A program made the translations under genes and the position numbers. 64,000 bases of DNA from positions 28,788-92,787 of the forward strand of contig CAZSBG010000006.1 in assembly GCA_964605145.1 (NCBI GenBank). The letters are read 5' to 3'. The DNA is from an uncultured Cytophagia bacterium (GTDB taxonomy: Bacteria > Zhuqueibacterota > Zhuqueibacteria > Thermofontimicrobiales > Thermofontimicrobiaceae). Position 1 is the stretch's first letter, and every line of letters starts with the position of its first letter. The notes beneath the pieces are model-generated. The model was not told the origin of the DNA, did no database searches, and worked only from the letters and a program-made list of their open reading frames with translations. Below are positions 8,548 through 50,774 of the stretch, piece by piece.

Positions 8548-8785
8548 CACATCCTCACTTTTATTCCATTAAATTTTCACACTTCATCACCTAAATAAAT
8601 GTTATTTTATCAATTCAAAAAAGATCAACAAATAGTGTTTGGTCTTCATCGCTCTGCTACCAGCATTAAGTTGAATCAGCTTTAGCAGATTAAAGCTGAA
8701 CCGAAATATCTCTGAACCTCTGGCCTTTCAGAGATCATTCTGCAAGAGACTGAATAGTTTTCATCTTCAGCGATCTGCGCATTAA

Positions 8786-8820
8786 CAAAAAAAGGAGTTT
8801 GATAAATTTCAACAAACTCC
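8786..8820 (-). terminator. Rho-independent terminator downstream of the STAS gene, ending the long - strand locus
   Basis: In - strand orientation, GGAGTTTG-11 nt loop-CAAACTCC is followed by TTTTTTTG. Confidence 0.6.
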
Positions 8821-8852
8821 TGTTTTATATGAATAAAAATATTTTTCTAATT

Positions 8853-9566
8853 TTAATTCTGTTTAAATGTCTCTCTCTGAAAAAACTCAACCCTCTTTTT
8901 CTTGGAATTTAAGTTCAACTGTTTTAAATATCTAACCACCTGAAACCAGCTTAACTTTAAATTGCCGTACATCGGTGAATTTAACTCGCGCATAATTTTT
9001 ATGCTGCCATTCTCGGGATTTTCAATGACCAACTGTTTTATTTTTTCTTCGACGCTTTTATCCCCGGCATCCGACGAAATCATTTTATTTAAATACGCTT
9101 CTCTCTCGCTTGCATCGTCTTCGGAGTGAGAAGAATGACTCGTTTCTTCTTTATAACTTTCAGTGTCTCGTCTCACCTGACTGACACTTCGTTGTTCACC
9201 ACGCGGTCTGGATTTATCGAAATCAGCCACCGCATCTTCGATCGAATCGAAGGCTTTTAAAATATAATGAAATTCCAACAATTCAAATACTTCATACACG
9301 TCAGGAATCATGCCGATAAGCTTGAGGTCGCCACCTTTCTCCCGAATACCTTTAATCTCACTGATAAAAATACCCCAACCTGCGCTGCTTATGTAATCAA
9401 CATTGGACAAATCGATAATAATGTTGTAATTGTTGGCGTCTAACAAGGTTTCAAGAGAGTGTTCTAATTCTGCGGAAGTAGTCGTGTCAATATACCCACC
9501 CACCTTTATCACAGAAATATTGTTGTCAACACCTGTTTGTTTAACAGACAATTGAATTCCTTCCAT
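8853..9566 (-). CDS. STAS-domain protein (anti-sigma-factor antagonist-like) with a ~130-aa C-terminal extension
   Basis: The N-terminal ~110 aa (IKVGGYIDTTTSAELEHSLETLL ... DLSNVDYISSAGWGIFI) is a SpoIIAA/RsbV-type STAS fold. The C-terminal part is Ser/Glu-rich and then has a predicted helical domain. The track start is TTG at 9611; the ATG at 9566 preceded by GGAG is preferred. Confidence 0.75.
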   Translation of the reverse strand: MEGIQLSVKQTGVDNNISVIKVGGYIDTTTSAELEHSLETLLDANNYNIIIDLSNVDYISSAGWGIFISEIKGIREKGGDLKLIGMIPDVYEVFELLEFHYILKAFDSIEDAVADFDKSRPRGEQRSVSQVRRDTESYKEETSHSSHSEDDASEREAYLNKMISSDAGDKSVEEKIKQLVIENPENGSIKIMRELNSPMYGNLKLSWFQVVRYLKQLNLNSKKKRVEFFQRETFKQN

Positions 9567-9699
9567 CGAATACTCCAAGATGTATGATTCGCAAAATTTT
9601 CTTAAATTCAAATATAATAGAAAAACAAGTAAAAGTCAACAAAAAAATATGATTTACATCTTTCGTTTTTTTAATATACTATCTCATTTCTCTAAAAAT

Positions 9700-12600
9700 T
9701 TACTTACGATTTTTTAGTAATTCTTCAGCTTTGATAATATGATTCGAAATATCGTCTCTGCCGGGATCTAATTCGAGTAATTTTTTCCATTCCCCTATAG
9801 CTTCCTTTAACTTACCGTTATTCGCATAAATAACTCCTGTATTTTCATAAGCATCCGTATCTTTTGGATCCAGTTCTTTGACGCGAAGGTAAGCTGAAAC
9901 AGCCTTTTCGTATTGGTGGGAACGATAATAAGAGTTTCCCAGAATACTGAATGCTTCTTTGAACTCCGGATAAATTTTTGTAACTTGGAGGAATTGCTCA
10001 ACAGCTTGCTCGTAATTATGCTCATTATAAAATTTTAAACCCAGAATAAGGTGTTTCTCGCGAAGTGGGTCCTGTTTCGACAGGAATGAATTTGAATCTT
10101 CAGAATCATTTGTAACCTGGCTATTGGAAAAATTCATAAAATTATTCTCTTCGGATGCTCGTTTCTTTTCAGGATTTTTTGGCTGACCTTCGAGCACAAG
10201 CTCAGCTTCATCGTCCTGCAATTCGCCTTTTTCGAAAAATGAGATGTCCGATTCGATTTCATCCAATAAATCATTGAATGAAAATTCATCGCCCATAATT
10301 TCATCGTCCTCTAAAATATCCTGTTCATTAACTTCCGACACGTCCTGGACATCATCCAATAACTCCATGGTTTCATCTTGCGATTGATTCTCATCCTCTT
10401 CTTCGGAATCTTGAATTTCTTGTTCATCACTCAAGTCCAGTTTTCCATTATCGCCATTTTTATCCGTATCGGTTTGAAAAATTTCATTTTTAAAACTCGT
10501 TTCATCAACCAGTGTTTCGAAACCCAGATCGTCTGAGTTGTCTTCTTCAGAATCTTCGAGTAATTCATCTAAATTTATTGATGGTTTTGGTCTTTCCTGT
10601 TCTTCTTTCGGTTGATCAATTTCGTCAGGCTCGTCTGAAATTTCTTCTTTTGAATCTTCAAAGTCTGACGTTTCATTTAAATCCAAATCGTTTTCTTCAT
10701 CGTGTTCCCCCTGTTCATCCCAAATATCTTTGAAGCTGAAATCGTGCTCCAAGCCGAGATCATCAACGTCCTCAGCTTCTTCCGAAACGTCATCATCATC
10801 AAAATCAATATCGTCTTCCAGGTCAGTTGACTCTTCCTCTTCAAAAAAGATATCTTCCTCTGATTTTTCATCCGATGAATCGAAATCATCTTCACTTTCC
10901 GCAGTTTCTGATTCATCCTCGCGATGAATACTTGATTCATGCAAACCACCCTCTTCTTCATCGTCTTCTTCTTCATCCCGTTCTTTTTTGAGCAGGTCCT
11001 CAATTGGCATGGTCATCAGGCTTTCGAGGTAGAAGTTATCATCCGGATCCTTTGGCATCCTGACTTGCTTTGGCTTCCTGGGTTTATTTTTCTTTTCAAC
11101 GGGTCGTTCATCATCTTCTTCGTGACCGAGTTCTTTTTTCGATTCCTCCGGCGGCGGTGGTAAGGGAGGTTCGTCGTAGCTTCGGTCAAGAATAATCTTC
11201 CCGTCCAATGTTAACATCGGGGTACCCGGGGGTTTCATTCTCTTTTTCTTGCCTGACCGGGCGATATAAGCTTCCCGCAACTGCCGTGTGTTTAATCGAC
11301 TTCGAACGAGTTCATCATAGATTCGGCTTTCATTGATTTCCGTGTAGGTGTATTTTTCTGTGTTGAGTTCTTCGCTAATTCTCTTGGCACCAAATTCCGG
11401 ATGTTTCTTTATAATGTCATATATCTTCGTTTTTTCTTCGATACTCAGATGTTTCGCCTCGACGGCAATGGTTTCGTCAATGGAATAGGCGTCGATCCCT
11501 TCTTCTTCGAATATTTTTTTGTATTTATTATAGTATGCATAGGTTGTGATGCCTGATTCCTCACACGCTTCGCGGATATTTTTTCCGGCTAATATGGCGT
11601 TATGCGCTTTCTGCGCGCGATGCAATTCAATTTTTTCCGGCGAACTTTTTTCTTTGATGGCAACAACAGTGATATCGTCATTTTGGTCAAAGCCTTCTGT
11701 AAAAGAATGTATTTCATCTTTCAATTTATCGATAAATGCCTTGGCACGTAACGTTCCATGCTTACGTATCACATCCTGCAATCGCTCTTCACTGAACAAT
11801 TCACGGCGACCATTCATGGCCTCGGTGATACCATCGGTGTAAATCAATAGGATATCATCTTCGGCTAACTGAATTGTGTCCGATTCGATCGAACGTTTGA
11901 ACAATTCAGGATCCGGCAGTGAAATGCCCACCGGGAATCCCCTGGGATTTAAATAATACGTTTTCTTTGAACCCCGTCTGTAAAGAATCATTGGATTGTG
12001 CCCGGCGCTGGCGTAATTAATTCGTCGCTTTTTGGAATCAATGATGACATAAAACAGGGTCACAAACATTCCCTTTTTCATATCATTGACGACAAACTCG
12101 TTCACACGCGCCAACACCTCTGAAGCTGAACGAATGGAGCGCGCTTCGGTTCTCAGGGCAGTCCGAATCATTGTCATGATAAGTGAACCGGGAACGCCTT
12201 TTCCTGACACATCAGCAACGACAATCCCCAAAGTATCTTTATCCACTTCAACAAAATCGAAATAATCACCGCCAACTTGTTTGGCCGCTTCATAATGCGA
12301 TGCTATCTCGTATCCCTCCAGAACCGGGGTTTCTGCCGGAAGCAATGTCTGCTGTATATCCTGGGCCAGTTGCATTTCCTTTTGAATCCGCTCTTGTTCA
12401 GCGAGATTTTTCTGGGATTGTCGAAATTTATCCGTTATATCGCTAAAGGCTTTGGCAATCTCGCCCACTTCGTCGCCGCTATCGAAATCAATTTCGTCTT
12501 TGACATCTCCGCCATGACCCAGATCACTCACCCAGGTTGAGAGCTTGCGAAATGGATTCATTATTAAATAGATGAGCAATGTCACGCCGAGATAGCTCAG

Positions 12601-13593
12601 CGCCAAAATCATAAATGCTGTCAGAAGATCTCTCGTCCGAACCGAAGCCACCTTGCTGCTGACGACATCTTTTTGAAATTCCAGGTAGACGGTTCCAACC
12701 CTTACCCGAGAAGCATTGTATATATCGCTTACAAAGCTGTAAACTTCCGTTCCACTGTTGTCGTCTTTATATTTGTAGAGATTGGGACGTGGTTCATCGC
12801 GATCTGAGGGAATAACAAATTCCTGCCCCAGCAATGTTTCATCAGTTGAATTAATGATATAATTGGTCGTATCAGTGACTGACAGACGATAAAAATCGTC
12901 TTTTGACTCCTGAAATTCCTTAACTTTGAGCGCCACATAAAATATTTTCAAATCTTCATCTTCATTATCGATGATACTGCGGGCAATACTTTTGCCGGTA
13001 GGTCGCTCGATGGCAACAAATTCATCCAGCACTTCGTTCCCATGCTTGAAAAAATAATAGAAATATCCGATCGTAATAGCAACGAATAATATTAGTGCGG
13101 AAATGATTGAGTAGCGCATTTTCAAACTGACAGATATGGTGGGAGTCTGAATCACTTTTTTCTTGCGAAAAGAACTGACCCTGTATTTCGTCAGCCTGAG
13201 TTCATTGCCTTCTTCGGTATGATGGTATTCAATTTCATCCAGCAGCTTGCGCATGATAAAAATTCCCAGACCACCCTTTTTACCGATATCAACATACCGC
13301 TTCAAATCCGGGTCTGCAACTCGGGACGGATCAAAATATTTTCCCTGGTCGATAAGCACAACACTCATGCTGTTTTTCTTGACGATGACGCGCATTGTAA
13401 TCATGCCCTCCAGATCGCGGTAGGCATGCTTAATGATATTCGTCGCGGCCTCGTCAATGCACAGCTTGAATGCATTTACCACTGTATCCGGGAAGCTATG
13501 TTTGCGCCCTGCTTTGGTGACAAAATTCCGCAGTTCGCCCAGATAATCAATGTGAGCGGGAACTTTTATTTCTTCTTTAATCGCTGCTTTCAA
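9700..13593 (-). CDS. 1,297-aa multidomain transmembrane signalling protein. Domains, N to C: RsbW/SpoIIAB-like HATPase kinase, TM, periplasmic sensor, TM, HAMP, SpoIIE/PP2C phosphatase, HTH-like segment, ~370-aa polyacidic disordered region, TPR repeats.
   Basis: The N-terminus (FKLCIDEAATNIIKHAY ... GGLGIFIMRKL) matches anti-sigma-factor serine-kinase HATPase_c. There are two TM helices (aa ~160-182 and ~326-348). The PP2C motifs are YEIASHYEAAKQVGGDYFDF, VVADVSGKGVPGSLIM and YTDGITEA. The C-terminal TPRs are LILGLKFYNEHNYEQAVEQF.... Confidence 0.75.
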   Translation of the reverse strand: MKAAIKEEIKVPAHIDYLGELRNFVTKAGRKHSFPDTVVNAFKLCIDEAATNIIKHAYRDLEGMITMRVIVKKNSMSVVLIDQGKYFDPSRVADPDLKRYVDIGKKGGLGIFIMRKLLDEIEYHHTEEGNELRLTKYRVSSFRKKKVIQTPTISVSLKMRYSIISALILFVAITIGYFYYFFKHGNEVLDEFVAIERPTGKSIARSIIDNEDEDLKIFYVALKVKEFQESKDDFYRLSVTDTTNYIINSTDETLLGQEFVIPSDRDEPRPNLYKYKDDNSGTEVYSFVSDIYNASRVRVGTVYLEFQKDVVSSKVASVRTRDLLTAFMILALSYLGVTLLIYLIMNPFRKLSTWVSDLGHGGDVKDEIDFDSGDEVGEIAKAFSDITDKFRQSQKNLAEQERIQKEMQLAQDIQQTLLPAETPVLEGYEIASHYEAAKQVGGDYFDFVEVDKDTLGIVVADVSGKGVPGSLIMTMIRTALRTEARSIRSASEVLARVNEFVVNDMKKGMFVTLFYVIIDSKKRRINYASAGHNPMILYRRGSKKTYYLNPRGFPVGISLPDPELFKRSIESDTIQLAEDDILLIYTDGITEAMNGRRELFSEERLQDVIRKHGTLRAKAFIDKLKDEIHSFTEGFDQNDDITVVAIKEKSSPEKIELHRAQKAHNAILAGKNIREACEESGITTYAYYNKYKKIFEEEGIDAYSIDETIAVEAKHLSIEEKTKIYDIIKKHPEFGAKRISEELNTEKYTYTEINESRIYDELVRSRLNTRQLREAYIARSGKKKRMKPPGTPMLTLDGKIILDRSYDEPPLPPPPEESKKELGHEEDDERPVEKKNKPRKPKQVRMPKDPDDNFYLESLMTMPIEDLLKKERDEEEDDEEEGGLHESSIHREDESETAESEDDFDSSDEKSEEDIFFEEEESTDLEDDIDFDDDDVSEEAEDVDDLGLEHDFSFKDIWDEQGEHDEENDLDLNETSDFEDSKEEISDEPDEIDQPKEEQERPKPSINLDELLEDSEEDNSDDLGFETLVDETSFKNEIFQTDTDKNGDNGKLDLSDEQEIQDSEEEDENQSQDETMELLDDVQDVSEVNEQDILEDDEIMGDEFSFNDLLDEIESDISFFEKGELQDDEAELVLEGQPKNPEKKRASEENNFMNFSNSQVTNDSEDSNSFLSKQDPLREKHLILGLKFYNEHNYEQAVEQFLQVTKIYPEFKEAFSILGNSYYRSHQYEKAVSAYLRVKELDPKDTDAYENTGVIYANNGKLKEAIGEWKKLLELDPGRDDISNHIIKAEELLKNRK
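10083..11193 (-). repeat. Polyacidic low-complexity disordered region (D/E-rich, ~370 aa) within the multidomain signalling protein
   Basis: The coding strand is dominated by GAA/GAT/GAG codons. The Ser-rich track ORF on the opposite strand at 10730-10927 is an antisense artefact of this region. Confidence 0.8.
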
Positions 13594-13625
13594 ATTTAAT
13601 TTATCCTCTCTTCCGATAATCCTCT

Positions 13626-15548: not shown

Positions 15549-15565
15549 AGTACAAATCCTGTTTG

Positions 15566-18500: not shown

Positions 18501-21500
18501 TCCGTAAAATCGATGAAAACATCTGCAGACGGACGAACATAAACCGCGCCTGAGTCTGCCACCTGAAAAGTTGTATTTGTATTTAAATAGGTTCCACTCA
18601 AATTTAGTTTTATTTTTGCCATTCCGCCCAAAACACCGGTACTTGTCACGCGGTAAATCAGCGTATCGGCTCCATTCCAGGACAGCGTTAAATTTGGATT
18701 ATTTTCAAATTCGAGTGGCGCCACGATGGTGTAATCATCCTGCTCATTCCCGGTAATTATGATGGATACATCCTCTCTGTTTGGCGGATCCAATTTTATG
18801 AATCCCGCTCCGCTATCTTCAACAGCCACGATAATTTGCCATTCGAAAGGACTCAGCGCTCTGACCGTATCCTGCGATGGCGAAATGGAAACAATTTTGA
18901 ACTTGCCTGGTCGCTGTACAGTGACTGTATCCGTCGAATCGACTGAGGGGCTGATAAAAATTTTATCAGGCTCCGTCGGTGTATTTTCTGCAAATGCGGT
19001 ATCAATTGAGGCGGAGAATACTTCATCCCAAATCCAGTCCGATGACGCCTGTACATTGAACTTTAGCGTATCCGTGCTCGCGCCTTGCACAATTTCAAGG
19101 GAATCCACCGGATTCAAAATAGTTGATGTACTATCACTAATTAACGACATTTTGATATTTTGGGCCGCGTCTTCTCCCTGGTTCTGGACAAGAACGGCTA
19201 TCTGGAAAACCTGATTATTATCCACATACGGCGCATTGGGCGCAATATTCACAGTTTTCAGAATTCGAATATCGGCCGGCATTTCTACCTTAATTGTTGT
19301 GCTATCTTCAGCGGTTTTTTCTTCCTGACTGTTTATCTCCTCGGCAAAAACCGATACATGAATCGTTCGACTGCCTGCAACAGAACCGGTTGTGTCCACT
19401 GAAAAAATCAGGCTGTCCGTAGCGCCGGAAGGCAGCTTGAAAAAGCCGAGTGTTTCAAAACTTATTGGGAAACTGACCACATAATTTGTGTCATCCCCAA
19501 AACTCACAAAGTCATTCAGGTGTGTCGAATCGATTGCAATATCTCCGCCACCGTTATTAGTTAGCGAAATAATAGTCTGCCAGGGCATTGATTGATTTAC
19601 TGTTACTTCTGGTTGGGATGTTCGAATATAATCTATAACAAGCTCACCCGGCGCCTGCACCGTTACCCCGGTCACTTTGCTTTTGATGATTTGACCGCTG
19701 ATCATATCATTCAAATAAACTGTTCCTCCAATGGTAACTGAACCGATTGTTGTGCCGGTTTCATCAACCGTTACTATCAGCGTATCGGTCAATCCGGCAT
19801 CGAGCAAACTATCACCACTTGTCTTGAATGTGTCAGGATATAACATCTGGTACTCGCTCGAAATATCTGAACCGCCATAGGTAAAATTTACCCGAGCGCT
19901 ATCCAGCCGCAACGGCGCTCCCCCATTATTGCGAATTACCATGTTCAGAAACCAGTTCTCAGCCTGACCGCTGGTGACCGTTCTCTGACTGGGATAAAAA
20001 TCGACTATTTCCAAATCAGATGCTTGTTTGACATACCATTGATCGGTTGTGTCTGCGTTCAAATCCGAATAGGGTAGTTCTGAGTTTTCATCGCTTGCAT
20101 AGACTTTTCCATCGATTGTTATGCTGTCGAGTGTGGCATTTGTGCCTACCGTTACGGTAAAGAACAGACTATCCAGGCTGTGCCCTGCGATTGAGGTTGG
20201 ATTCGTCGGATAAGGCACGAGCGCATATTCGTCACTCACATCTAAAATTGGTGGCGTTAAATTTGAATAAGAGAATCTCACTGAATCCACAATCGCCGTT
20301 GCATCCCCATTATTCTGAATCCTTGCGGAGATAATTGTATTTGTCCCCTGGGTAACGGTATCTGCATCAGCTTTCACTCTCAAAAATTGTAGTGAAGGAG
20401 GCGTTTGAACCAGCCATTTATCCGTTTCATTGGCTGCCACATCGCTTACAGAACTGCCATTTACCCTGCAATTAATGAAACCATCGATCTGGATTGAATC
20501 TGTCAATGCGTTTGACTTCACATTCACTAAAAAACTTAGGGTCTTATTTCCATTTCCTGGTAACACTGAAATCGTATCATTACGACTCACAATATAATCG
20601 CCTGAACGATTTGAATAACCGGGTGCAGGGCCGGTAAATTCTAATCCAGCGCCATCAGAAATTATCGTGGCATTTGAAGCGCCATGATTTTTCACGGCCA
20701 TCAGAACCGTTATATTTTGTTGATTGCGGCTCACTTTATCAAAATCTGAACTAACAGACAGAATCTCCAACCCGGAAATAATTATGCTGGTATCCCCAAC
20801 TGCACTTCCCCTGACAACACTATTCGCCTGAACGAGAGCCGTTCCACCTGTTACACCTGCATTGACAACGAATGAAATTTGGCCTGCTGTGTCTGATACA
20901 ACCTGTGTGCCTCCGATACCCGGATTTTCATCAGGTGTTGTAATGGTACCCAATGTTGTTGACACGGTGAAATATTCGCCGCTGGAAATTGGATTGTTAT
21001 CGCTGTCACGAATTGTATCCGACGTAACCACAGAAAACGAATCAGGATCGGCCGGTATTATTTCAGGAACAGGATGAAGTACAATTTCGCCTATCGGTAC
21101 GCCGGGATTTACAGTAATGAGTCCAGTCGTATCATTTTCTGCTGTAGCATGCACGGCCAGAATTTTTCCGTGCGCCGGCGCTGTTGATGGCGAGAAATCA
21201 AGCGTTGAACCGGTCCACAATACAGCCGGCGCTAATGTACTGTCACTGGACCAATCTACAACCGCCGGCCCGAGATAAACATTTCCTTCGTCATAAGCAG
21301 CCGCATACAGTGTCAATGTTTCATCGGCTGAAATGGTACGCGTCGTCACCACATTGCCGGCGCCATTATCTGCATCGCGAATGAGCACGTGGTGAATGGC
21401 TCCCACAGTAAATGTACCTGTCGAATCGGCTCCCACACTCACACTGTCAGCATAAATTCGTCCACTCGTATAGGGCGTAGCCGGACTGAACATTGTGCTC

Positions 21501-23656
21501 GTTCCCTGCAATGGAGTTGGCGTATCCAGATCTCCGGTGGTTCCCCAGTCTGCAACCACTTCTCGAATGTAATTATCATACTGGTCGTATCCTGCAGCGT
21601 AAAGGGATATTTGATCATCCAGATTCAACATATAATCACCAACCTCGGAGCCCAAACCACCCGGATTATCCCGAATGACAATGTGATTCAATCCATCTGG
21701 TTTCACATTGAAATTATTCGAAACACCACTCTCGCCGGAGCCGGCTGCAGTGATTTTATTATCCGTATATTTTTTTGTGATTGTTAAATTTCCTGACCAG
21801 GTGCCTGCACTGAAATTTCCTGTGGAACCGGGGCTCAAAGAACCGGACTCATCCGTCAAACTGACCGCATTTGTAAATCCGGTCACTATATTTTCGTATG
21901 CATCGTTTGCTTCAATAGTCACCGAGAAAGGTGTTCCAGCAGTCTGCGGGCTGGAAATATCTGAAATTGAAAAATGATCCAGTGATGCCGGGTTCACATT
22001 AAAGCTGTTTGACGTTCCGTTTTTATCGCTGCCATTGACAATGATTTTATTACTGGAACCAGTTTTCGTGACAATCACATTACCATTCCAGCTCCCTCCA
22101 CTGAAACTGCCTGAAACCTGGGGAGTGAGTGTGCCTGTTAAATCACTCATCGCCACAGGACCGGCGTACGTTGGTATTGTATTCCCTTCTCTATCCTCTG
22201 CCGTTACAGTTATCGAAAAAGAATTACCGGCTGTTTGTGGTGTTGAAATAGCGTCAATAGTAAAATGATCTAACGCTCCCACTTGTACATCAAAAGCATT
22301 TGATGTCCCGGTTTCGCCTCCGCCGGATCGCTGAACGCTGATCTGATCATTGGTAAAATCGGCTGTAATCTTCACCTGACCGTTCCATTCTCCGCCGCTG
22401 AAATTGTCACTCTGATTGGGCGAGACTGTCCCGCTATTATCCGAAATATCTACTTTTCCGGTAAAACTTGTTACGGTGTTATCATAATTGTCCTGGGCAG
22501 TAACTGAAATGGAAAAATATTCGCCCGCAGTTTTGGGAGAAGAAATCGGCCCGATGTAAAATTTTGCCAAACTTCCGGGATTCACATTGAATAAATTCGA
22601 TGTGCCAACTTTGGAACTCCCGGATGCTGTAATGTAATTATCGCTCTGGCTTTCCGTGATTGTTACGCTTTGCGTTAATGAACCTGAGCTAAAAATATTT
22701 GATGTTTCGTTGAGCGAACCGGTAAGATCGGTCAACAATACAGTGCCAGTAAAACTTTCCACAAGATTCTCATACTGATCCCTCGCAGTAACTGTAATGC
22801 TGAATGACGTCCCGGCCGTTTTTGGACTGGTGATTGTGTTAAATGTAAAATGATCCAGGCCGGCAGGCAAAACATCAAATTCAGATGACATGCCGGATAT
22901 ATCATTATACGTGGCTGTAATTTTATTATTCGACCTGCTTTTAGTAAACGTCACCGTACTATTCCAGACACCTGCTGTGATGCTGCCGGTAGATGTTGGG
23001 CTAATAGTATCGGTTAAATCTGTCAGCGCAACAGAAGATGTATGCGACGTGACCGTATTGTCGTATGCATCCTGTGCGGTAATTGTGACAGAAAAATTTG
23101 AACCAGCCGTTGCATCGCCACTTGTACTGACATCAAAATGATCCAGCGCTCCGGCAGCAATTGAAAAATTTGGTGTATTCCCGTCATCGATATGGGTGTA
23201 TCCCTGGGTCATGGTAATAATTTTTACGCTATAATTATCCGCATCCGGGTTATTCCCCACAGTTCCGATACTGATTTCCACCTCGGTTGATGCCGGAACT
23301 TTTGTTCCGGTGCCATCACGTTCGATCATGACCGAGTCACCATTAACATATTGTATGGAAACACCGCCATTGATACTGCCATCCTCCGAATCGGCAATTT
23401 GAACGCCCGTGAGATCGAATCCCGACGGAAAAATTAATTTAATTTTGCCATCCACCGGGATGCCGTCATCAGCATTATTCCCTGTCGCTGAAGTTGTGAA
23501 AGTAAAAGTATAAATCGCGGACTCCCCGGCAACATTATCACTCAAACTTGTACTCATATTTGCTAGATCACCTTGCGCAAATACTATAGTTGCATTCCCT
23601 GAAAAAATGAGAATTATTACTATTACGATCCCTGCTCTCAGATGTCTTATCCTCAT
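15566..23656 (-). CDS. Giant (~2,696-aa) cell-surface protein with tandem Ig-like repeats and a C-terminal type-A T9SS sorting domain
   Basis: Signal peptide MRIRHLRAGIVIVIILIFSGNATIVFA (ATG at 23656; the track start at 23671 is TTG). At least five ~95-aa tandem repeats share the motif LDHF..ISSPQTAG..FS.TVTA.D.Y.N...F.G.V.L. The last ~90 aa (NYPNPFGE...VYVARISTGNGKSALIKIAVIK) match the Por_Secre_tail / TIGR04183-type CTD. Confidence 0.85.
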   Translation of the reverse strand: MRIRHLRAGIVIVIILIFSGNATIVFAQGDLANMSTSLSDNVAGESAIYTFTFTTSATGNNADDGIPVDGKIKLIFPSGFDLTGVQIADSEDGSINGGVSIQYVNGDSVMIERDGTGTKVPASTEVEISIGTVGNNPDADNYSVKIITMTQGYTHIDDGNTPNFSIAAGALDHFDVSTSGDATAGSNFSVTITAQDAYDNTVTSHTSSVALTDLTDTISPTSTGSITAGVWNSTVTFTKSRSNNKITATYNDISGMSSEFDVLPAGLDHFTFNTITSPKTAGTSFSITVTARDQYENLVESFTGTVLLTDLTGSLNETSNIFSSGSLTQSVTITESQSDNYITASGSSKVGTSNLFNVNPGSLAKFYIGPISSPKTAGEYFSISVTAQDNYDNTVTSFTGKVDISDNSGTVSPNQSDNFSGGEWNGQVKITADFTNDQISVQRSGGGETGTSNAFDVQVGALDHFTIDAISTPQTAGNSFSITVTAEDREGNTIPTYAGPVAMSDLTGTLTPQVSGSFSGGSWNGNVIVTKTGSSNKIIVNGSDKNGTSNSFNVNPASLDHFSISDISSPQTAGTPFSVTIEANDAYENIVTGFTNAVSLTDESGSLSPGSTGNFSAGTWSGNLTITKKYTDNKITAAGSGESGVSNNFNVKPDGLNHIVIRDNPGGLGSEVGDYMLNLDDQISLYAAGYDQYDNYIREVVADWGTTGDLDTPTPLQGTSTMFSPATPYTSGRIYADSVSVGADSTGTFTVGAIHHVLIRDADNGAGNVVTTRTISADETLTLYAAAYDEGNVYLGPAVVDWSSDSTLAPAVLWTGSTLDFSPSTAPAHGKILAVHATAENDTTGLITVNPGVPIGEIVLHPVPEIIPADPDSFSVVTSDTIRDSDNNPISSGEYFTVSTTLGTITTPDENPGIGGTQVVSDTAGQISFVVNAGVTGGTALVQANSVVRGSAVGDTSIIISGLEILSVSSDFDKVSRNQQNITVLMAVKNHGASNATIISDGAGLEFTGPAPGYSNRSGDYIVSRNDTISVLPGNGNKTLSFLVNVKSNALTDSIQIDGFINCRVNGSSVSDVAANETDKWLVQTPPSLQFLRVKADADTVTQGTNTIISARIQNNGDATAIVDSVRFSYSNLTPPILDVSDEYALVPYPTNPTSIAGHSLDSLFFTVTVGTNATLDSITIDGKVYASDENSELPYSDLNADTTDQWYVKQASDLEIVDFYPSQRTVTSGQAENWFLNMVIRNNGGAPLRLDSARVNFTYGGSDISSEYQMLYPDTFKTSGDSLLDAGLTDTLIVTVDETGTTIGSVTIGGTVYLNDMISGQIIKSKVTGVTVQAPGELVIDYIRTSQPEVTVNQSMPWQTIISLTNNGGGDIAIDSTHLNDFVSFGDDTNYVVSFPISFETLGFFKLPSGATDSLIFSVDTTGSVAGSRTIHVSVFAEEINSQEEKTAEDSTTIKVEMPADIRILKTVNIAPNAPYVDNNQVFQIAVLVQNQGEDAAQNIKMSLISDSTSTILNPVDSLEIVQGASTDTLKFNVQASSDWIWDEVFSASIDTAFAENTPTEPDKIFISPSVDSTDTVTVQRPGKFKIVSISPSQDTVRALSPFEWQIIVAVEDSGAGFIKLDPPNREDVSIIITGNEQDDYTIVAPLEFENNPNLTLSWNGADTLIYRVTSTGVLGGMAKIKLNLSGTYLNTNTTFQVADSGAVYVRPSADVFIDFTEPVCRNINQYDIGQVNTNQAFSVRSKIRNTGGEQVDNVLVSLTAPGYIIPSVNIDNILPSGEAIATFNVAAQSVATEQVKFTVRIESAISHGSGLPATIGGASDSTALVRVHDPALLKISINKEHSIYSIGQVAPFQVQIENLGTADVDASGELALFMPQNYFVVVDQQQKSSDTTSFEINETVEWQVVPPSYASSNDTIVAKISKPPLDENTGSFALIENTDPFDSLVVRTVPLELAVESFEISSPEGALDDTLSTLQNFWVQVDIMKSENITSANARLNLPAGYRFAPGTDSIKANVADVAGWELIAPENAHSNEKWIKVLVTGTVGGDEVTASDSISVVVENRATLLIDRAWISWPSTDSTLSMGQEFDLSAIVINSGDAPLEGAAYLSIDFGATGVTTEDDTVKPFQPDIPVTWRLLAPEVETLKAPIVVTINTIPKDVNTNEKAMVPTRSKYYYVQTQQSANAWIENLRIVSPVGAIDKILSTHQSFQIEADVSWFNCTGAPSVQLQLEGGFTTPESYPKLPVGVGDQGTVNWTITTPGGTIDDQHIWMKLTAQDANSRISFTRTSDSLEVDVVRRAEIQLKGKILSPASALDGIVSTNQNFVVSAYLSKTGDANILGNFNATLTLPEGQGYSIAQDLTQTAAYNDSLFWTITAPTSERDPSNIAIDLVSWPEDENSNLPVAAEAILLKNVSIPISAEEKSVTVSMLPTTTKNTIARGDTGVSMMGLELLASGDAFSNNILFTGVKIKLKDRFGVPVTNPAQVISRVCVVNNQQNNEVFGQITAIPTSNPIEILFSQIDTLKPEIENQVQFKVDIATTAEISDFQIAIDSVNSLYLYDEESGQTPKLKNVNGQTLEALNFESEPSVIIEADFDKAFSNYPNPFGEIGRPVTNFVYYLDEDTEVKIQIYTLIGELVWSRTYSELEPQGRKGLHDSDVIWDGRNGQGYKVLNGVYVARISTGNGKSALIKIAVIK
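15569..15850 (-). other. Type-A T9SS C-terminal sorting domain of the giant surface protein
   Basis: YPNPF ... IWDGRNGQGYKVLNGVYVARI ... K terminal pattern. Confidence 0.75.
21750..23160 (-). repeat. In-frame tandem coding repeats (~285 nt units, about five copies) encoding Ig-like domains near the 5' end of the giant gene
   Basis: Recurrent nucleotide and protein-level units (...LDHF.ISDISSPQTAG.PFSVT..A.DAYEN.VT.FT..V.LTD.SG.L.P...G.FS.G.W.GN..ITK...NKI...GS...G.SN.FNVNP..L). Confidence 0.7.
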
Positions 23657-23704
23657 TTGATGCTCTTCCAAAGTTTTTGTTCGTCAATTCTTTTTCATCT
23701 GTCT

Positions 23705-23874
23705 CTAACCTGGATTATTCATTGTAATTCATTAAGGAATCCAGATAGCCTAAATGCTGCTTAATTCAGAATTCGTTATATCAAACTCTGTTAAATTTCA
23801 TACACCTCGTTAATCTTTTTAATAACATTTATTTATATATGTTTAGGTTGAAATCTGTGAATAATTCAGGCTAA
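23705..23874 (-). mobile_element. MITE-like element copy B: 162 bp (23709-23870), inverted relative to copy A, flanked by CTAA direct repeats
   Basis: The reverse complement aligns end to end with 1499-1660. Its terminal inverted repeats are CCTGGATTATTCA ... TGAATAATTCAGG, with 4-bp CTAA at 23705-23708 and 23871-23874. Its end nearest the giant surface-protein gene lies about 50 nt upstream of that gene's ATG. Confidence 0.7.
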
Positions 23875-23889
23875 AAATCAGACTGCATG

Positions 23890-24399
23890 TTATTCTTTTT
23901 CGGGCAGAATTCTGTGTATTTTTTCCTGCTTTAAAACTGATCTTTCATCTTCTATTATTTCCACTGTTATTCTATAGTTATCGGCAGGTTTTAAAGGATT
24001 TTTTACAATCGCGAACTTGACATCCACTTTTTCATTCGGTTTTATTTCTCTTCCAAGCCCGGATCTTTTCAGCGTCAATATCTGGTCATTGACCTCAACG
24101 TCAAATCCACCATTCATTGTTGTTGAGCTGGCTATCATCAATTCTGATAAATCAAACTCCGCTGGAAAAGTGACATTCAATTTTGCCGTCGGCGAAATCG
24201 GTTTTTCGATTCTAAATTCAATTTTGTAAATCGATTTTGCACTTGATTCAGGATGTCTGGCAATCACATTGACAGTATCGGCAGGTGCAGCGCTCGCCAC
24301 ACTGGTGAAAAAATAAATTATTGTAATAAAAAATAGTATTGGGATGAATCTGGTCTTCCCTGTCTCAAACCTATGATATGTTTCAGAAAGATACATCAT
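23890..24399 (-). CDS. Small secreted protein (169 aa), paralogous to the N-terminal domain of the giant surface protein
   Basis: Signal peptide, then SIYKIEFRIE...KLNVTFPAEFDLSEL...NGGFDVEVND...RSGLGREI...VKNPLKPADNYRITVEII. This aligns with the giant protein's AIYTFTFTT...KIKLIFPSGFDLTGV...NGGVSIQYVN...RDGTGTKV...GNNPDADNYSVKIIT. There is no T9SS CTD. Confidence 0.7.
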   Translation of the reverse strand: MMYLSETYHRFETGKTRFIPILFFITIIYFFTSVASAAPADTVNVIARHPESSAKSIYKIEFRIEKPISPTAKLNVTFPAEFDLSELMIASSTTMNGGFDVEVNDQILTLKRSGLGREIKPNEKVDVKFAIVKNPLKPADNYRITVEIIEDERSVLKQEKIHRILPEKE

Positions 24400-24716
24400 T
24401 GTATATTCTCCATGTTAGATTGAAAAACATGATTCGCTCTAAAAAACTTGGTTATATAATTATATTGGATTATTTCCAGTGCGTGGGTGATTTTCATCAA
24501 AAAATTAAATAATACTATCCAAAAAAATTTTCTAAGTTCAGAAAAAATATAAAAAACATATTATTTAAATTTCTGAATTGCAAAAATTATACCGATGTTC
24601 ATAAAAGGTACTCATTCAATGAGGAAATATAAGAAGGTGAAAATGCAGACTTATTCCATCATACATTCATGTGATTTGCTTGCCATGAAAAGGAATAAGT
24701 CCTGCAATTTAATAAA

Positions 24717-25847
24717 TTATTTCAAAATTGCCCGAAGAAGTATTAAAAATCCTTTACCATCGTTCTCTGCTAATTTTAAATTCTTCTCAGCTTTTTTGAA
24801 ATCAGGATTAATTTTCAATGCCTGACGGAATTCTTCAAGCGCATTTAAGAACAGATTTCGACACTGAATCAAATAGACAATTCCCAGACTATTCCGCAAA
24901 TCTGCATAGTCAGGATTTTTCTGAATGACATCTTTCAGTTGTTTTGTATATTGCATGATGAATTCATCATCTTTACCTTTGCCGCCAAACATAAATTTCA
25001 GATAAAACTCATTCTCAAAATCGTAGCCCACAATATCTGATCGGTCGGACTCGGCAATTTCCAGTGCGTTCACTGCTTCATCTATATTTTCGTCATCCAG
25101 ATGTTTGAGAATAGTGTCAATATTTTCCGGTTTGAAAAACTGCTTTTTCTCTTTTATTTCTGTCAACAGTGATTTAATCTTTTCAAGACGAATCACTTTA
25201 TTGGGAAGATTTTCGTTCTCTTCAATGCCTTCAACAATTGTCTTCAAAAAAACCAGACAAAGATTGAACATGGCGACTACGTAATCCGAATTCAGTTCAA
25301 TCGCTTTTTGCAATTCAGAAATTGCTTCGGAATATTTTTCCTTATTTAAATATGCGTATCCTAAATTATTATGAATATCCGCATAGTCAGAATTGTATTC
25401 AATTCCTGTATTAAAAACGTCGATAGCCTCCTGATACAATTTCTCTTTTAAATACGCTCTGCCGAGATTATTATAAGCTTCTACCATTTCAGGATCGATT
25501 TCCAGAGCCCGCTTAAATTCGGAAATCGCCTCATCCACCATATTTTTGCTCAGGAAAACCATCCCAAGTTTGTTGTTGGAAACAGCGTGCTCTATCATTT
25601 TCACTTTATCTGAAATATAGAACAGCAATTCAATGTCAGAAATCATACTTTGGTGGAGCTTGTTCACTTCGAGCTTTATGTCCGAAATACCGATTTCATT
25701 GGATAGCTCTACACCTTTTGACACTGTTACTTTTCCATCATCAAATACGCTTGATACAACCTTTTCATTGGGTTCCAGGTATTGTGTTTGAATATGGAAT
25801 TTTTTACCGCCCGCCAGAATCTCGCTATTCAATCCAATATTTTCCAT
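24717..25847 (-). CDS. TPR-repeat protein
   Basis: Multiple canonical TPR units (AYNNLGRAYLKEKLYQEAIDVF, IHNNLGYAYLNKEKYSEAISELQKAIELN, LRNSLGIVYL...) with a short N-terminal beta-rich domain. Confidence 0.7.
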   Translation of the reverse strand: MENIGLNSEILAGGKKFHIQTQYLEPNEKVVSSVFDDGKVTVSKGVELSNEIGISDIKLEVNKLHQSMISDIELLFYISDKVKMIEHAVSNNKLGMVFLSKNMVDEAISEFKRALEIDPEMVEAYNNLGRAYLKEKLYQEAIDVFNTGIEYNSDYADIHNNLGYAYLNKEKYSEAISELQKAIELNSDYVVAMFNLCLVFLKTIVEGIEENENLPNKVIRLEKIKSLLTEIKEKKQFFKPENIDTILKHLDDENIDEAVNALEIAESDRSDIVGYDFENEFYLKFMFGGKGKDDEFIMQYTKQLKDVIQKNPDYADLRNSLGIVYLIQCRNLFLNALEEFRQALKINPDFKKAEKNLKLAENDGKGFLILLRAILK

Positions 25848-25934
25848 TCTACATCCTCAAAACGATTTACACTTTTATAACACTTAAGTTATCGGATAAT
25901 TATATTTGCACTTTAATGATAAATATCAAAACAT

Positions 25935-26417
25935 TTATTTGTTTTTAAACTTATCTTTGAGCCGAGTGTTCACCTCAGGGGTCACAAAACAACTTACATC
26001 TCCCTGAAAACTGGCAACCTCTTTTACGATGGTTGAATTTAAATAGGTGAATCTTTCATGAGGCATCAGAAACACCGTAACCAGTTCATCGGAAAGCTTG
26101 CGATTTACCAGCGCCATTTGAAATTCAAATTCAAAATCTGATGTAGCCCTGAGGCCGCGAATGATCGCTGTGGCTCCTTTTTTCAACGCATAATTCACCA
26201 GCAAATCATCAAAACTTTCGACGGTTACCTTTTCCAGCTTTGGAATGGACTTCTGAATCATGGTAATACGTTCATCAATGTTGAACAAGGGTGATTTAGA
26301 AGGATTGGTTGTCACTGCCACGACGACCTCATCAAAAAGCATGACTGCCCGTTTAATGATATCTATGTGACCATTCGTCACCGGATCGAACGTGCCAGGG
26401 TAAATTCCGATTCTCAC
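25935..26417 (-). CDS. coaD: Phosphopantetheine adenylyltransferase
   Basis: IGIYPGTFDPVTNGHIDII signature (T/HxGH nucleotidyltransferase); 160 aa. Confidence 0.9.
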   Translation of the reverse strand: MRIGIYPGTFDPVTNGHIDIIKRAVMLFDEVVVAVTTNPSKSPLFNIDERITMIQKSIPKLEKVTVESFDDLLVNYALKKGATAIIRGLRATSDFEFEFQMALVNRKLSDELVTVFLMPHERFTYLNSTIVKEVASFQGDVSCFVTPEVNTRLKDKFKNK

Positions 26418-26422
26418 TACGG

Positions 26423-26977
26423 CTACCTTTCTTGTAATAAAAATGTGACTGTTGTGTCACCAAAATTTTTCTCGTTTTTCTTTGATAATCTATTCGATAG
26501 TGATGAAATATTTCTCTTTGAGCTATGTTCTAAAATGAATAATCCACCTTTTTTTAGCAGTTCATTTTCTTCGATAAGCGTTATCATTTTCTCATAAACC
26601 CTGCTAAAATAGGGTGGATCAGCAAAAATTATGTCAAACTTTTCTTTATTCGTAATATTGTTTTTGAGATATTGAATGACATCTTTTTTAATAATTTGAC
26701 ATTTCTCCGAAAGCCCCACCAAATTTATATTCCGATGTATCAAATCAAGAGCTTGCCTTGAATTGTCGACTAAAACACTATACCGAGCCCCCCGGCTCAA
26801 TGCCTCGATGGATAAATTTCCTGTACCACTGAATAAATCACAAATTACAGATCCTTGAATATCGTCTCCAATATAATTGAATATTGACTCTTTAATTCTA
26901 TCAGAAGTCGGGCGAATTGAATTTCCTTTTGGACTAAAAAGAATCCTGCCCTTGTGTTTTCCGGCTATCACCCGCAT
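26423..26977 (-). CDS. rsmD: 16S rRNA (guanine966-N2)-methyltransferase RsmD
   Basis: VIAGKHKGR...LDLFSGTGNLSIEALSRGA...IFADPPY motifs. Confidence 0.85.
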   Translation of the reverse strand: MRVIAGKHKGRILFSPKGNSIRPTSDRIKESIFNYIGDDIQGSVICDLFSGTGNLSIEALSRGARYSVLVDNSRQALDLIHRNINLVGLSEKCQIIKKDVIQYLKNNITNKEKFDIIFADPPYFSRVYEKMITLIEENELLKKGGLFILEHSSKRNISSLSNRLSKKNEKNFGDTTVTFLLQER

Positions 26978-26993
26978 TCAAAGCTTTACCCCA

Positions 26994-27983: not shown

Positions 27984-28101
27984 GACCCCTCCTATTTAAA
28001 ATTAGTATACGTTTCTCTTAGAACCATCGAGAAAGCAGGTGAATCCTGCACCAAAAATATTCCTGTTGCCTTATTAATCATGCAGGAATAATTATCTATG
28101 T

Positions 28102-29073: not shown

Positions 29074-29210
29074 TCTTTATCCCCACCTGACATCTATCCG
29101 AAATGTACAATCAAATTTAAAAGGAAAGAGAGAAATATTTAAATTATAACACCGATGGATGTTTTTGCCTCCAAAAGCACCCATCGGTAAATGCTAAATT
29201 ACTATCTAAA

Positions 29211-47316: not shown

Positions 47317-49263
<1,947 letters not shown>

Positions 49264-49352
49264 TTATTTTTATCCCGTGAAATTAGGATGGAAAAACGTG
49301 GGGAATTTTTTGCTGTTCAGCAGATCCCCTGTAAATTTCGAAGACGAAAATC

Positions 49353-50765: not shown

Positions 50766-50774
50766 GGATAGAAA

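Follow-up and report, generated by a model that had tools for sequence, protein, structure and literature searches.

Six open reading frames of the 64-kb stretch of DNA analysed here (the window), from an uncultured KSB1/Zhuqueibacterota bacterium, follow one another on the minus strand, on which all features given below lie. In the direction of transcription they encode a TPR protein of 376 aa (24717-25847; TPR_11, TPR_1 and TPR_2 matches), a small secreted protein of 169 aa (23890-24399), a giant cargo protein of 2,701 aa (15566-23671, probable ATG at 23656), a PorV/PorQ-family outer-membrane barrel with a TPR tail (13626-15548, 640 aa), a kinase/phosphatase of 1,297 aa (9700-13593) and a STAS protein (8853-9611; the probable ATG at 9566 leaves 237 aa over 8853-9566). 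An earlier reading of this DNA from the sequence alone (the sequence-only reading) had listed these six genes, with the TPR protein first and the STAS protein last, and all of them are present. It had also joined them into one operon with gaps of 17-90 nt and a single terminator. The five junctions measure 17, 32, 88-133, at least 218 and 317 nt. Among the four genes from the cargo gene to the STAS gene they are 17, 32 and 88-133 nt; the first two junctions of the series, 317 and at least 218 nt, fall well outside the claimed range.

The terminator that follows the STAS gene is real. It lies at 8786-8821 and consists of a stem GGAGUUUG...CAAACUCC of 9+3 bp, then U7; its long loop hid it from a simple scan. 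It is not the only strong structure, however, as another RNA hairpin is found directly 3' of the TPR gene (24640-24710; MFE -23.2 kcal/mol, z -3.46), and 0 of 200 shuffles folded as well. This second hairpin could serve in termination or in transcript stability, and it speaks against the six genes sharing a single transcript. The genes for the TPR protein and the small protein are probably transcribed separately. The window is a replication-origin region in which nearly every gene at 0.7-52 kb is on the minus strand, and in such a strand-biased region a common strand is by itself weak evidence of linkage. No sigma-70-family domain was detected in the locus or in the approximately 45 window ORFs scanned, in agreement with the absence of a sigma factor gene stated earlier; a partner of the switch might be encoded elsewhere.

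A kinase and a phosphatase in one membrane protein

The kinase/phosphatase begins with an RsbW/SpoIIAB-type serine kinase domain (residues 12-136; 13186-13560) matched by HATPase_c_2 at 94.7 bits against a cut-off of 27.4, while the RsbW models give 60-70 bits, under their equivalog cut-offs. Its N-box E..N..H, G1 DxG and G2 GxKGGxG motifs show no variation across 14 sequences drawn from several phyla. A hydrophobicity scan revealed two hydrophobic helices, at residues 159-182 and 322-348, which enclose a periplasmic sensor loop (residues 183-321; 12631-13047) with a weak, sub-threshold match to dCache_1 (E 0.0032). A WalK-like TM-sensor-TM-HAMP arrangement was matched as well. The HAMP domain (residues 339-383; 25.6 bits, above its cut-off) precedes a PP2C/SpoIIE phosphatase domain (residues 452-647; 11653-12240) scoring 173 bits with SpoIIE against a cut-off of 25, and the Asp motifs that bind metal (GGDyfD, ADVSGKG, TDGxxE and DDiT) are conserved across phyla. 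The protein ends in a cytoplasmic TPR domain (9724-10056; TPR_2 58 bits) that is preceded by an acidic low-complexity region and was detected only in KSB1-type loci and, weakly, in the unclassified loci L028, L034 and L052.

HATPase_c_2, HAMP and SpoIIE are thus in one protein, as expected from the proposal that an RsbW-type kinase and a SpoIIE/PP2C phosphatase are fused around a periplasmic sensor. The label "bitopic" does not hold, because the protein crosses the membrane twice. More generally, profile searches support the RsbW, PP2C, STAS and PorV-family assignments of the sequence-only reading, and the domain calls repeat in the orthologues from Caldithrix abyssi and Ignavibacteria.

The STAS protein is anti-sigma-antagonist-like. 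Its STAS domain (9231-9530) scores 64.7 bits, above the cut-off of the model, and TIGR00377 gives 62 bits against a cut-off of 53.45. Across the cassette orthologues, from KSB1 to Eisenbacteria, the phosphorylatable-serine motif DYISSAGWG does not vary; only three unfused or outlying loci depart from it (L035, L056 and L042). In Eisenbacteria (L035) and Zixibacteria (L056) the enzyme is split and the genes run in the order PP2C, kinase, STAS, an arrangement which shows the three to be putatively interacting parts of one module. The STAS protein is the putative common substrate of the fused kinase and phosphatase.

Transposase-like HTH modules

Both the STAS protein and the kinase/phosphatase carry transposase-like HTH modules, which were absent from the sequence-only reading. 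In the kinase/phosphatase the region covers residues 659-778 (11260-11619) and comprises HTH_28 plus an HTH_32/HTH_21-like part. The C-terminus of the STAS protein is an HTH_21-like four-helix module (8856-9071), a paralogue of kinase/phosphatase residues ~700-778 (BLASTP 1e-7). In the window all HTH scores are sub-threshold (HTH_28 20.3, HTH_32 18.5, HTH_21 17.7 and NF033577 26.9 bits). The region in the kinase/phosphatase matches the N-terminus of the IS481 model NF033577 with an E value of 3e-6 in the window and 4e-14 in an Ignavibacteria orthologue (L045), and for the STAS C-terminal module HTH_21 was matched by 6 of 18 members (best E 3.1e-6), so that the resemblance is consistent among relatives. 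There is also a precomputed PF13276 match on P0348.

AF2 modelled the STAS C-terminal module with a pLDDT of 88.9, and Foldseek returned no significant match for it (best E 0.79), the hits being mostly winged-helix regulators. The modules are not always paired: two loci have one in the STAS protein only (L036 and L038), and two in the kinase/phosphatase only (L049 and L052). We know of no proven DNA-binding role for HTH_21. Common to the two proteins, the modules are a candidate sigma-independent output of the switch.

The barrel, its tail and the giant cargo protein

The barrel domain (residues 38-311; 14616-15437) scores 136.2 bits with the PorV_fam model NF033709 (cut-off 90), and its orthologues score 143 bits in Caldithrix abyssi and 131 bits in Ignavibacteria. 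It remains under every equivalog cut-off: 51 bits against 250 for PorV (NF033710), 64 against 220 for PorQ (NF033711) and 71 against 325 for PorV2. The orthologous barrels of Caldithrix abyssi and Ignavibacteria lean to PorQ (82-86 bits, versus 46-50 for PorV). Judged by these scores, the barrel is a distinct subfamily within the PorV/PorQ family. A FadL/PorV-like barrel with a long tail had been proposed here; the family and the tail are borne out, but the term "PorV-like shuttle" expresses family-level resemblance only. The tail (residues ~315-640; 13629-14606) combines coiled coil with three TPR repeats (TPR_2 69 bits) and is conserved in 53 loci. FadL/PorV-type barrels have an even number of strands, which would place the tail in the periplasm.

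Besides Big-like and CARDB-like repeats, the giant cargo protein has a signal peptide and an N-domain, and it ends in a C-terminal sorting domain (CTD). Its hydrophobic N-terminus ends in ...IVFAQG and was judged by inspection to be a Sec signal peptide. The N-domain gives weak hints of BslA, YweA and DUF2808, and the repeats match CARDB and Invasin_D3 weakly in profile searches. Orthologues of ~1,000 to 5,110 aa occupy the equivalent gene position in other phyla. The small secreted protein, with a hydrophobic N-terminus at residues 16-40, is indeed paralogous to the N-domain of the cargo (BLASTP 1e-10 to residues 7-151 of the giant). The TPR protein has no signal peptide by inspection and is cytoplasmic.

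The CTD occupies the last 100 aa of the cargo (15569-15868) and is T9SS type-A/FlgD-Ig-like. Taken alone it is below the curated cut-offs, with 21.5 bits against 23 for TIGR04183, 15.7 against 27 for Por_Secre_tail, and 20.1 and 17.5 for FlgD_ig and CHU_C, where the cut-off is 27 for each. A profile built from 19 orthologous CTDs matched the CTD of PorU over its full length (6za2_A 1058-1154, E 1.9e-6) and that of PorZ (5m11_A, E 0.0076), and these two retained CTDs are its best matches. The description of a T9SS type-A cargo of ~2,700 aa is right as to size and the presence of a T9SS-like CTD, but the type assignment is a resemblance at family level only. No T9SS translocon or motor gene (SprA/Sov, PorK/L/M/N, PorU) was found within the 64-kb window.

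Conservation of a four-gene core

We compared synteny in 80 related loci, each of 20 kb, and found the gene order strongly kept. Neither of two outcomes that would have counted against the sequence-only reading, unsupported domain assignments and genes never syntenic in related FCB-group genomes, was thus obtained. The series CTD-protein, PorV-TPR, kinase/PP2C, STAS recurs in KSB1, Calditrichia (including Caldithrix abyssi), Ignavibacteria, Krumholzibacteriia, Eisenbacteria, Zixibacteria and Gemmatimonadetes. The flanks outside it are unrelated between lineages: metH in L001, isocitrate dehydrogenase in L002, DUF456/DUF4159 in Calditrichia and GGDEF/Wza in Ignavibacteria. The kinase/PP2C gene directly follows the tailed barrel in 43/44 loci and a tail-less barrel in 0/17, counts from loci that share descent and are not 43 independent events. 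Of 51 tailed loci, 49 have a CTD-protein that ends beside the barrel gene, the gap usually being -4 to +18 nt, and STAS is present in 38/42. For tail-less barrels, 12 of 22 loci have CTD cargo alongside but no switch module.

This linkage of tail and kinase, together with the retention of gene order, makes the core a unit of four genes and not six. The claim of a six-gene unit thus stands for the conserved four, but not for the two upstream genes, which were seen in KSB1-type loci only: the TPR protein lies upstream of the cargo in L003, L004, L006, L018, L020 and L022 only, and homologues of the small secreted protein are found in L003, L004, L006 and L009. Because the cargo gene fills the 10-kb flank in non-KSB1 phyla, this KSB1-only status is as seen in the flanks reached. 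On this distribution, the two genes appear to be lineage-specific accessories of KSB1-type loci.

Ignavibacteria differ in their neighbouring genes. There, a ParA-like ATPase gene is inserted between the kinase/phosphatase and STAS genes, and downstream of the STAS gene come GGDEF, Wza-like and Wzz-like genes. Among the loci compared, a GGDEF gene after the STAS gene occurs in Ignavibacteria only. The ParA-like ATPase and the GGDEF protein suggest that the switch may have other outputs in this lineage.

A possible signalling route across the envelope

The domains are identified, their catalytic and phospho-acceptor motifs are intact, and the genes are tightly ordered and retained together across phyla. 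Beyond gene content and synteny, the mechanism that follows is what we infer. We give a probability of about one half to the reading that the four-gene cassette holds the cargo CTD in the barrel, reports through the periplasmic tail to the sensor loop, and sets its output by STAS phosphorylation. The barrel would bind and retain the CTD as PorV does with PorU and PorQ with PorZ in Porphyromonas, and its tail would touch the kinase/phosphatase at the sensor loop. Whether the surface protein is loaded, in place or lost could then shift the balance of kinase and phosphatase, and the resulting phosphorylation state of the STAS protein would determine the output. The likeliest route for the latter would be the HTH_21-like modules of the STAS protein and the kinase/phosphatase, by binding DNA or a common partner, rather than a sigma factor. 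The output could exert feedback on surface/biofilm genes or on the cargo operon. The signal might run in either direction, with the cargo as input or as output.

A more specific version, which we consider doubtful, is a trans-envelope surface-sensing device in which the adhesin CTD would be permanently plugged in the PorQ-like barrel, load or loss would be relayed by the TPR tail to the sensor loop, and the STAS state would directly control transcription through a domesticated transposase HTH, free of any sigma factor. If true, T9SS and partner-switching parts would together form a cell-surface signalling pathway, one ancestral to much of the FCB group. The locus suggests that a surface protein can be wired to a phosphorylation switch in a manner not yet described. 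In agreement with the sequence-only reading, which knew of no such system, our literature search found no account of this coupling among the papers it covered.

The function suggested previously was that STAS phosphorylation would regulate deployment of the adhesin. In that version the loop alone would sense general envelope or surface status, the output would be expression or secretion of the adhesin, and the barrel would be a private secretion shuttle outside the signalling. The same linkage evidence applies to it, the sensor loop resembles Cache/WalK-type ligand sensors, and for type B substrates of the T9SS, shuttle and cargo genes are known to form cognate pairs (PMC12618676). However, it leaves the strict pairing of tail and kinase/phosphatase unexplained, and tail-less barrels stand beside CTD cargo in loci that lack the switch. 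We regard it as unlikely.

It is still less probable that the neighbourhood lacks a functional link, with a housekeeping partner-switching regulator lying by descent beside a surface-protein/barrel pair and acting on a sigma factor encoded elsewhere. All loci derive from one ancestor, the window is strongly strand-biased, and the regulator is highly conserved (the best 120 of 1,921 matches share 58-97% identity with it across 800 aa), which suggests a core role. Against this, the linkage persists from KSB1 to Ignavibacteria, Zixibacteria and Eisenbacteria while barrel identity falls to ~25% and both flanks change, the junctions are overlapping or very short, and the tail correlates with the switch module. 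About as improbable is a SiaABCD-like arrangement, in which kinase, phosphatase and STAS would control a non-transcriptional effector (a diguanylate cyclase or exopolysaccharide machine) and hence biofilm, with cargo and barrel as co-regulated matrix components: SiaA is matched by the PP2C part with scores of 58-73 bits, and the Ignavibacteria neighbours and the BslA, YweA and DUF2808 hints fit, but these scores are far under the equivalog cut-off of 700, and neither the window nor other KSB1 loci nor Calditrichia have a GGDEF or polysaccharide gene next to the cassette.

Relation to known systems

The switch components resemble those of RsbU-RsbV-RsbW and SpoIIE-SpoIIAA-SpoIIAB, where a single-domain STAS protein with a conserved serine is likewise encoded alongside a PP2C phosphatase and a GHKL kinase of the RsbW/SpoIIAB type, and the unfused order is found in two related phyla. 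They differ in that a single membrane protein holds both kinase and phosphatase, the kinase lying N-terminal to TM-sensor-TM-HAMP, that STAS protein and enzyme carry transposase-like HTH modules, that the window ORFs scanned include no sigma factor gene, and that the module is linked to an outer-membrane barrel and CTD cargo.

Partner-switching-like systems that do not depend on sigma factors include SiaABCD of P. aeruginosa and RsbU of Chlamydia, which has a periplasmic sensor. HenR/STAS of Anabaena is a further case (PMC13555669). The cassette shares with these a membrane PP2C with HAMP or periplasmic sensor, a STAS-type substrate, a predicted non-sigma target and partial SiaA matches. In those systems, by contrast, the kinase is a separate protein, the effector is defined (cyclase or glycosyltransferase), and no link to a PorV-family barrel or CTD cargo is known. 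A SiaA equivalog with an adjacent diguanylate cyclase was rejected as an identification at the window locus (58.5 bits against 700; no GGDEF gene).

In FecA-FecR-FecI cell-surface signalling, the state of an outer-membrane barrel is relayed to an inner-membrane regulator. The logic proposed for the cassette, from barrel state through a periplasmic extension to an inner-membrane regulator, would be similar. This is a functional analogy only, as the protein families are entirely unlike and the cassette has no TonB box, anti-sigma factor or ECF sigma factor.

Several abstracts in the literature describe the T9SS as confined to Bacteroidetes. The lineages with the cassette lie outside classical Bacteroidia, and no T9SS core is known from them. 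Type B CTD cargo is paired with a PorP/SprF barrel (SprB-SprF; PMC12618676), whereas the cassette combines a type-A/FlgD-Ig-like CTD with a barrel that is not PorP/SprF. A type B pair was discarded as a candidate (CHU_C 17.5 bits against 27; no PorP/SprF model among the barrel matches), gene adjacency alone being in common. PorV-PorU and PorQ-PorZ are attachment-complex pairs (PMC5562754, PMC8545088). A tail of ~325 aa with TPR and coiled coil is unknown in PorV or PorQ and sets the cassette barrel apart from them. As in T9SS cargo-shuttle or anchor pairs, a large CTD surface protein is encoded directly upstream of a dedicated barrel, here of the PorV/PorQ family, and the CTD profile of the cassette matches the CTDs of PorU and PorZ.

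Gene Order Across Phyla

The cassette, in which a giant surface protein with a C-terminal domain (CTD) is followed by a PorV-TPR barrel, a kinase/phosphatase (kinase/PP2C) and a STAS protein, is kept in at least seven phyla, most of them uncultured. The order was present in both of two look-ups, one with metH downstream and the other with isocitrate dehydrogenase downstream and a cargo of 5,110 aa. Starting from 21 aligned PorV-TPR proteins, we then fetched 80 loci from one-genome-per-species contigs, searched them by tblastn with fragments of the six proteins of the window locus, and called the surrounding ORFs. The four genes were found in this order on one strand in KSB1, Calditrichia (including Caldithrix abyssi), Ignavibacteria, Krumholzibacteriia, Eisenbacteria, Zixibacteria and one Gemmatimonadetes contig, with barrel identity down to about 25%. 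The sequence-only reading had staked its proposal on synteny in relatives, and this test was passed: linkage is kept with changed neighbours.

Linkage follows the C-terminal tail of the barrel. Among loci with enough downstream sequence, tailed barrels (at least 520 aa) were followed by a kinase/PP2C gene in 43 of 44 cases and by STAS in 38 of 42, and tail-less PorV-like barrels (below 520 aa; FCPU426, Firestonebacteria, Bacteroidota and others) in 0 of 17 and 0 of 15, counts that measure retention of linkage and not independent events, as the loci are related by common ancestry. A CTD-protein gene stops beside the barrel gene in 49 of the 51 tailed loci, usually at a spacing of -4 to +18 nt; the figure for tail-less loci is 12 of 22. 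One Eisenbacteria and one Zixibacteria locus encode phosphatase (~530 aa), kinase (~200-260 aa) and STAS one after another as individual genes, which supports the fused protein being a partner-switching kinase and phosphatase.

The six-gene unit of the sequence-only reading stood in part. Its four-gene core is the portion conserved across phyla, and the first two genes, for the TPR protein and the small cargo paralogue, lie outside it. Both were found in front of the cargo gene in KSB1-type loci alone; elsewhere the 10-kb flank is taken up by the cargo gene, which would hide them if present. Beyond the four genes, Calditrichia loci carry DUF456, DUF4159 and DUF4175. Ignavibacteria loci (L045, 14680-20782; also L037, L043, L047, L048, L050, L053, L061) have a ParA/MinD-like ATPase gene between kinase/phosphatase and STAS, and GGDEF, Wza-like and Wzz-like genes 3' of STAS. 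A ParA-like gene also occurs in two Krumholzibacteriia loci (L049, L052).

Several loci depart from this pattern. In FCPU426 and Firestonebacteria (L059-L069), a CTD protein of ~570 aa precedes a tail-less PorV-like barrel of ~420 aa with stop/start overlap and no switch module; this two-gene unit may represent the ancestral state of the cassette. Two contigs of the KSB1 MAG WFVT01 (isolate S140_5) each carry cassette genes (L008, L009) with different cargo and kinase/phosphatase lengths, and L008 has no STAS match; the pair is either a duplication or the product of a mixed bin. In the MAG MFD02923.bin.1.27, a complete cassette (L039) is accompanied by a tail-less PorV-like gene at another locus (L070).

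Domains and Motifs of the Locus Proteins

The six ORFs proposed on the minus strand at 8,786-25,847 are present, and profile searches bore out the STAS, RsbW-type kinase, PP2C, PorV-family and TPR assignments. The final gene encodes the STAS protein (PF01740, 64.7 bits; TIGR00377, 62 bits against a cut-off of 53.45). The 1,297-aa kinase/phosphatase, on the same strand, contains HATPase_c_2 (residues 12-136, 94.7 bits), HAMP (339-383) and SpoIIE/PP2C (452-647, 173 bits). A hydrophobicity scan gave two transmembrane helices, 159-182 and 322-348, which place kinase and phosphatase in the cytoplasm on either side of a ~140-aa periplasmic loop with a weak Cache-like match. The 640-aa barrel matches PorV_fam (NCBIfam) over residues 38-311 (136 bits, cut-off 90), followed by TPR repeats.

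The catalytic and phospho-acceptor motifs are well preserved. The kinase N-box (E..N..H), G1 (DxG) and G2 (GxKGGxG) are invariant across phyla and the PP2C aspartate motifs are conserved, and the STAS motif DYISSAGWG is invariant among cassette orthologues; its serine corresponds to the one that is phosphorylated in SpoIIAA and RsbV. Orthologues from Caldithrix abyssi and Ignavibacteria gave the same family matches as the window proteins. Among named relatives, the kinase/phosphatase is closest to a protein from Candidatus Zhuqueibacterota (88% identity), with KSB1 and Calditrichaeota-labelled proteins next. At E <= 1e-10 it has 1,921 homologues; identity over 800 aa is 58-97% for the best 120. 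A matching family is formed by PorV-TPR fusions (620-700 aa), many of them on contigs equal in length to those that bear the kinase/phosphatase homologues.

The N-terminal domain of the giant protein has a true paralogue in the 169-aa secreted protein, as had been proposed (BLASTP 1e-10). Neither the cargo N-domain (23147-23569, minus) nor the paralogue (23890-24399, minus) could be assigned to a family. Only weak matches were obtained, to DUF2808 (6 of 15 relatives, best E 4.6e-4), BslA (1 of 15) and YweA (PDB 5mkd, E 1), which hint at a BslA-like surface-layer Ig fold. The TPR protein, encoded by the first gene, matches the RomY N-terminal domain at its own N-terminus (25600-25847, minus; residues 4-69; NF053858, E 3.9e-4), weakly at 20.8 bits against a cut-off of 50; RomY is a Myxococcus polarity and motility regulator.

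Transcription Unit and Genomic Setting

Two features put forward for a six-gene operon did not hold. Gaps of 17-90 nt had been claimed, and those found were 17, 32, 88-133, at least 218, and 317 nt. Likewise, the terminator is not single. A classical one lies 3' of the STAS gene at 8786-8821 (stem GGAGUUUG/CAAACUCC followed by U7); its 11-nt loop caused it to be overlooked by a simple scan, and it was found by sequence reading and folding. A second, stronger hairpin (-23.2 kcal/mol, z -3.5) is directly 3' of the first gene, making one six-gene transcript unlikely. The six-gene operon was thus rejected as a unit, given this hairpin, the length of the first two junctions and the detection of the first two genes upstream in KSB1-type loci alone. 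A search of 8000-27000 against Rfam at E up to 1 revealed no c-di-GMP riboswitch or other known RNA in the long leaders.

It is true that the six genes share a strand, but this is weak evidence by itself because the locus is in a strand-biased replication-origin region. The origin region spans 47317-62083, with dnaA at 52451-53818, a GC-skew sign flip near 52 kb and an AT-rich segment at 54-56 kb (GC 0.30). The minus strand carries dnaA, dnaN, recF, gyrB and gyrA, whereas yidC, mnmE, mnmG and rsmG are plus-strand genes; left of the origin almost all genes of the window are on the minus strand. The flanks of the locus are housekeeping genes, with metH downstream and coaD and rsmD upstream.

The CTD and the Barrel Compared With T9SS

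The CTD of the giant protein alone falls below every curated cut-off (TIGR04183, 21.5 versus 23; FlgD_ig 20.1, CHU_C 17.5 and Por_Secre_tail 15.7, each versus 27). A profile of 19 orthologous CTDs matched the P. gingivalis PorU CTD over its full length (6za2_A 1058-1154, E 1.9e-6), the PorZ CTD (E 0.0076), FlgD Ig domains and, weakly, a T9SS CTD from Flavobacterium, so the cargo CTD is probably T9SS type-A/FlgD-Ig-like. As a label, T9SS type-A cargo applies at family level only. The same goes for the PorV-like barrel, which passes the PorV/PorQ family cut-off and misses the PorV, PorQ and PorV2 equivalog cut-offs.

The barrel orthologues score higher for PorQ than for PorV. PorU and PorZ are T9SS proteins whose CTDs remain bound to PorV and PorQ (PMC5562754, PMC8545088). 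We read the barrel as a putative dedicated, PorQ-like holder of one cargo, not a general shuttle. Pairs of cargo and cognate-barrel genes are likewise known among T9SS type B substrates with PorP/SprF (PMC12618676), from which the cassette differs in both CTD type and barrel family. Several abstracts describe T9SS as restricted to Bacteroidetes.

HTH_21-Like Modules

Residues 659-778 of the kinase/phosphatase (11260-11619, minus), overlooked in the sequence-only reading, match the DNA-binding N-terminus of IS481 transposases (NF033577; E 3e-6 for the window protein, 4e-14 for an orthologue from Ignavibacteria), with weak matches to HTH_28, HTH_32 and HTH_21. The last ~70 residues of the STAS protein (8856-9071, minus) are paralogous to the latter half of this region (BLASTP 1e-7), and in 6 of 18 relatives they give an HTH_21 match (best E 3e-6). 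AlphaFold2 models them as a confident four-helix unit (pLDDT 88.9) behind a disordered linker. No transposase catalytic domain was found near either segment. It appears from these similarities that an IS481/IS3-type transposase N-terminal HTH was domesticated inside a signalling phosphatase and its second half duplicated onto STAS.

Foldseek with the STAS C-terminal model gave no significant match, the top ones being mostly winged-helix transcription regulators (TM about 0.5), and a sequence-profile search of the PDB returned nothing meaningful. For these reasons we do not claim DNA binding. The modules are nevertheless a candidate sigma-independent output. The STAS-borne copy occurs in KSB1, Calditrichia, Ignavibacteria and one Eisenbacteria locus, and is missing from Krumholzibacteriia and from the unfused versions. 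Single-copy loci (L036 and L038 versus L049 and L052) indicate that each module can exist without the other, and obligate docking of STAS on the enzyme through paired modules was rated lower for that reason.

Proposed Mechanism and Comparison With Partner Switches

We propose five steps, given from better to worse supported. The best supported is that the four cassette genes act together. The phosphorylation state of STAS would be set by the kinase and phosphatase domains, and the CTD of the cargo would be bound by the barrel. The tail of the barrel may be periplasmic and communicate with the sensor loop of the kinase/phosphatase, which would explain the joint presence or absence of tail and switch module. 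Least supported is the last step, in which the HTH_21-like modules, or else a partner whose gene lies elsewhere, could carry the output.

A c-di-GMP or exopolysaccharide output resembling that of SiaABCD is one rival, to which the Ignavibacteria neighbours of the cassette point. The simpler model of the sequence-only reading, with the barrel as shuttle only, is a rival to the proposed tail-sensor communication. Linkage without function is the remaining rival, set against a gene order that persists in so many phyla.

The cassette module would work like an RsbU/RsbW/RsbV partner switch and, as judged from sequence, shares three of the defining features of that family. Neither the fourth feature, a switched partner, nor any sigma factor gene turned up among the window ORFs scanned. 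Sigma-independent STAS systems exist (e.g., PMC13555669; reviewed in PMC8256260), but unlike the cassette none is known to be tied to an outer-membrane barrel. No description of the cassette was found in the literature searched, nor in the Caldithrix abyssi and KSB1 genome papers.

The original observation was largely right and its core idea survives its own tests, with T9SS labels valid at family level only. To our knowledge, regulation of T9SS-type surface proteins is understood in only a few Bacteroidia (PorXY/SigP), and outputs of sigma-less partner-switching modules have only recently begun to be assigned. The cassette joins these two subjects and offers the testable hypothesis that a giant surface protein is monitored from the cytoplasm. 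Its deep conservation and its occurrence in cultivable organisms, Caldithrix abyssi (L027) and Ignavibacteria lineages, make it of real interest, the latter because genetics and biochemistry become feasible. It would also give functional context to many database entries at present labelled only "SpoIIE family protein phosphatase," "STAS domain-containing protein" and "PorV/PorQ family protein."

Other Genes of the Window

A small pilus-like cluster (26994-30107, minus) lies directly upstream of coaD and rsmD. It encodes a 329-aa protein with no family match, a PilM-like ATPase-fold protein (28102-29073, minus) and a protein with a GspG/pseudopilin-like N-terminus (29211-30107, minus). The sole sizeable plus-strand gene within the 50-kb minus-strand run (39944-42601, 885 aa) combines patatin phospholipase, POTRA and Omp85 domains, the architecture of a PlpD-like type Vd autotransporter. 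A 276-aa protein (42667-43497, minus) resembles the Leptospira surface lipoproteins Lsa33 and LipL45 at 62 bits, under the cut-off.
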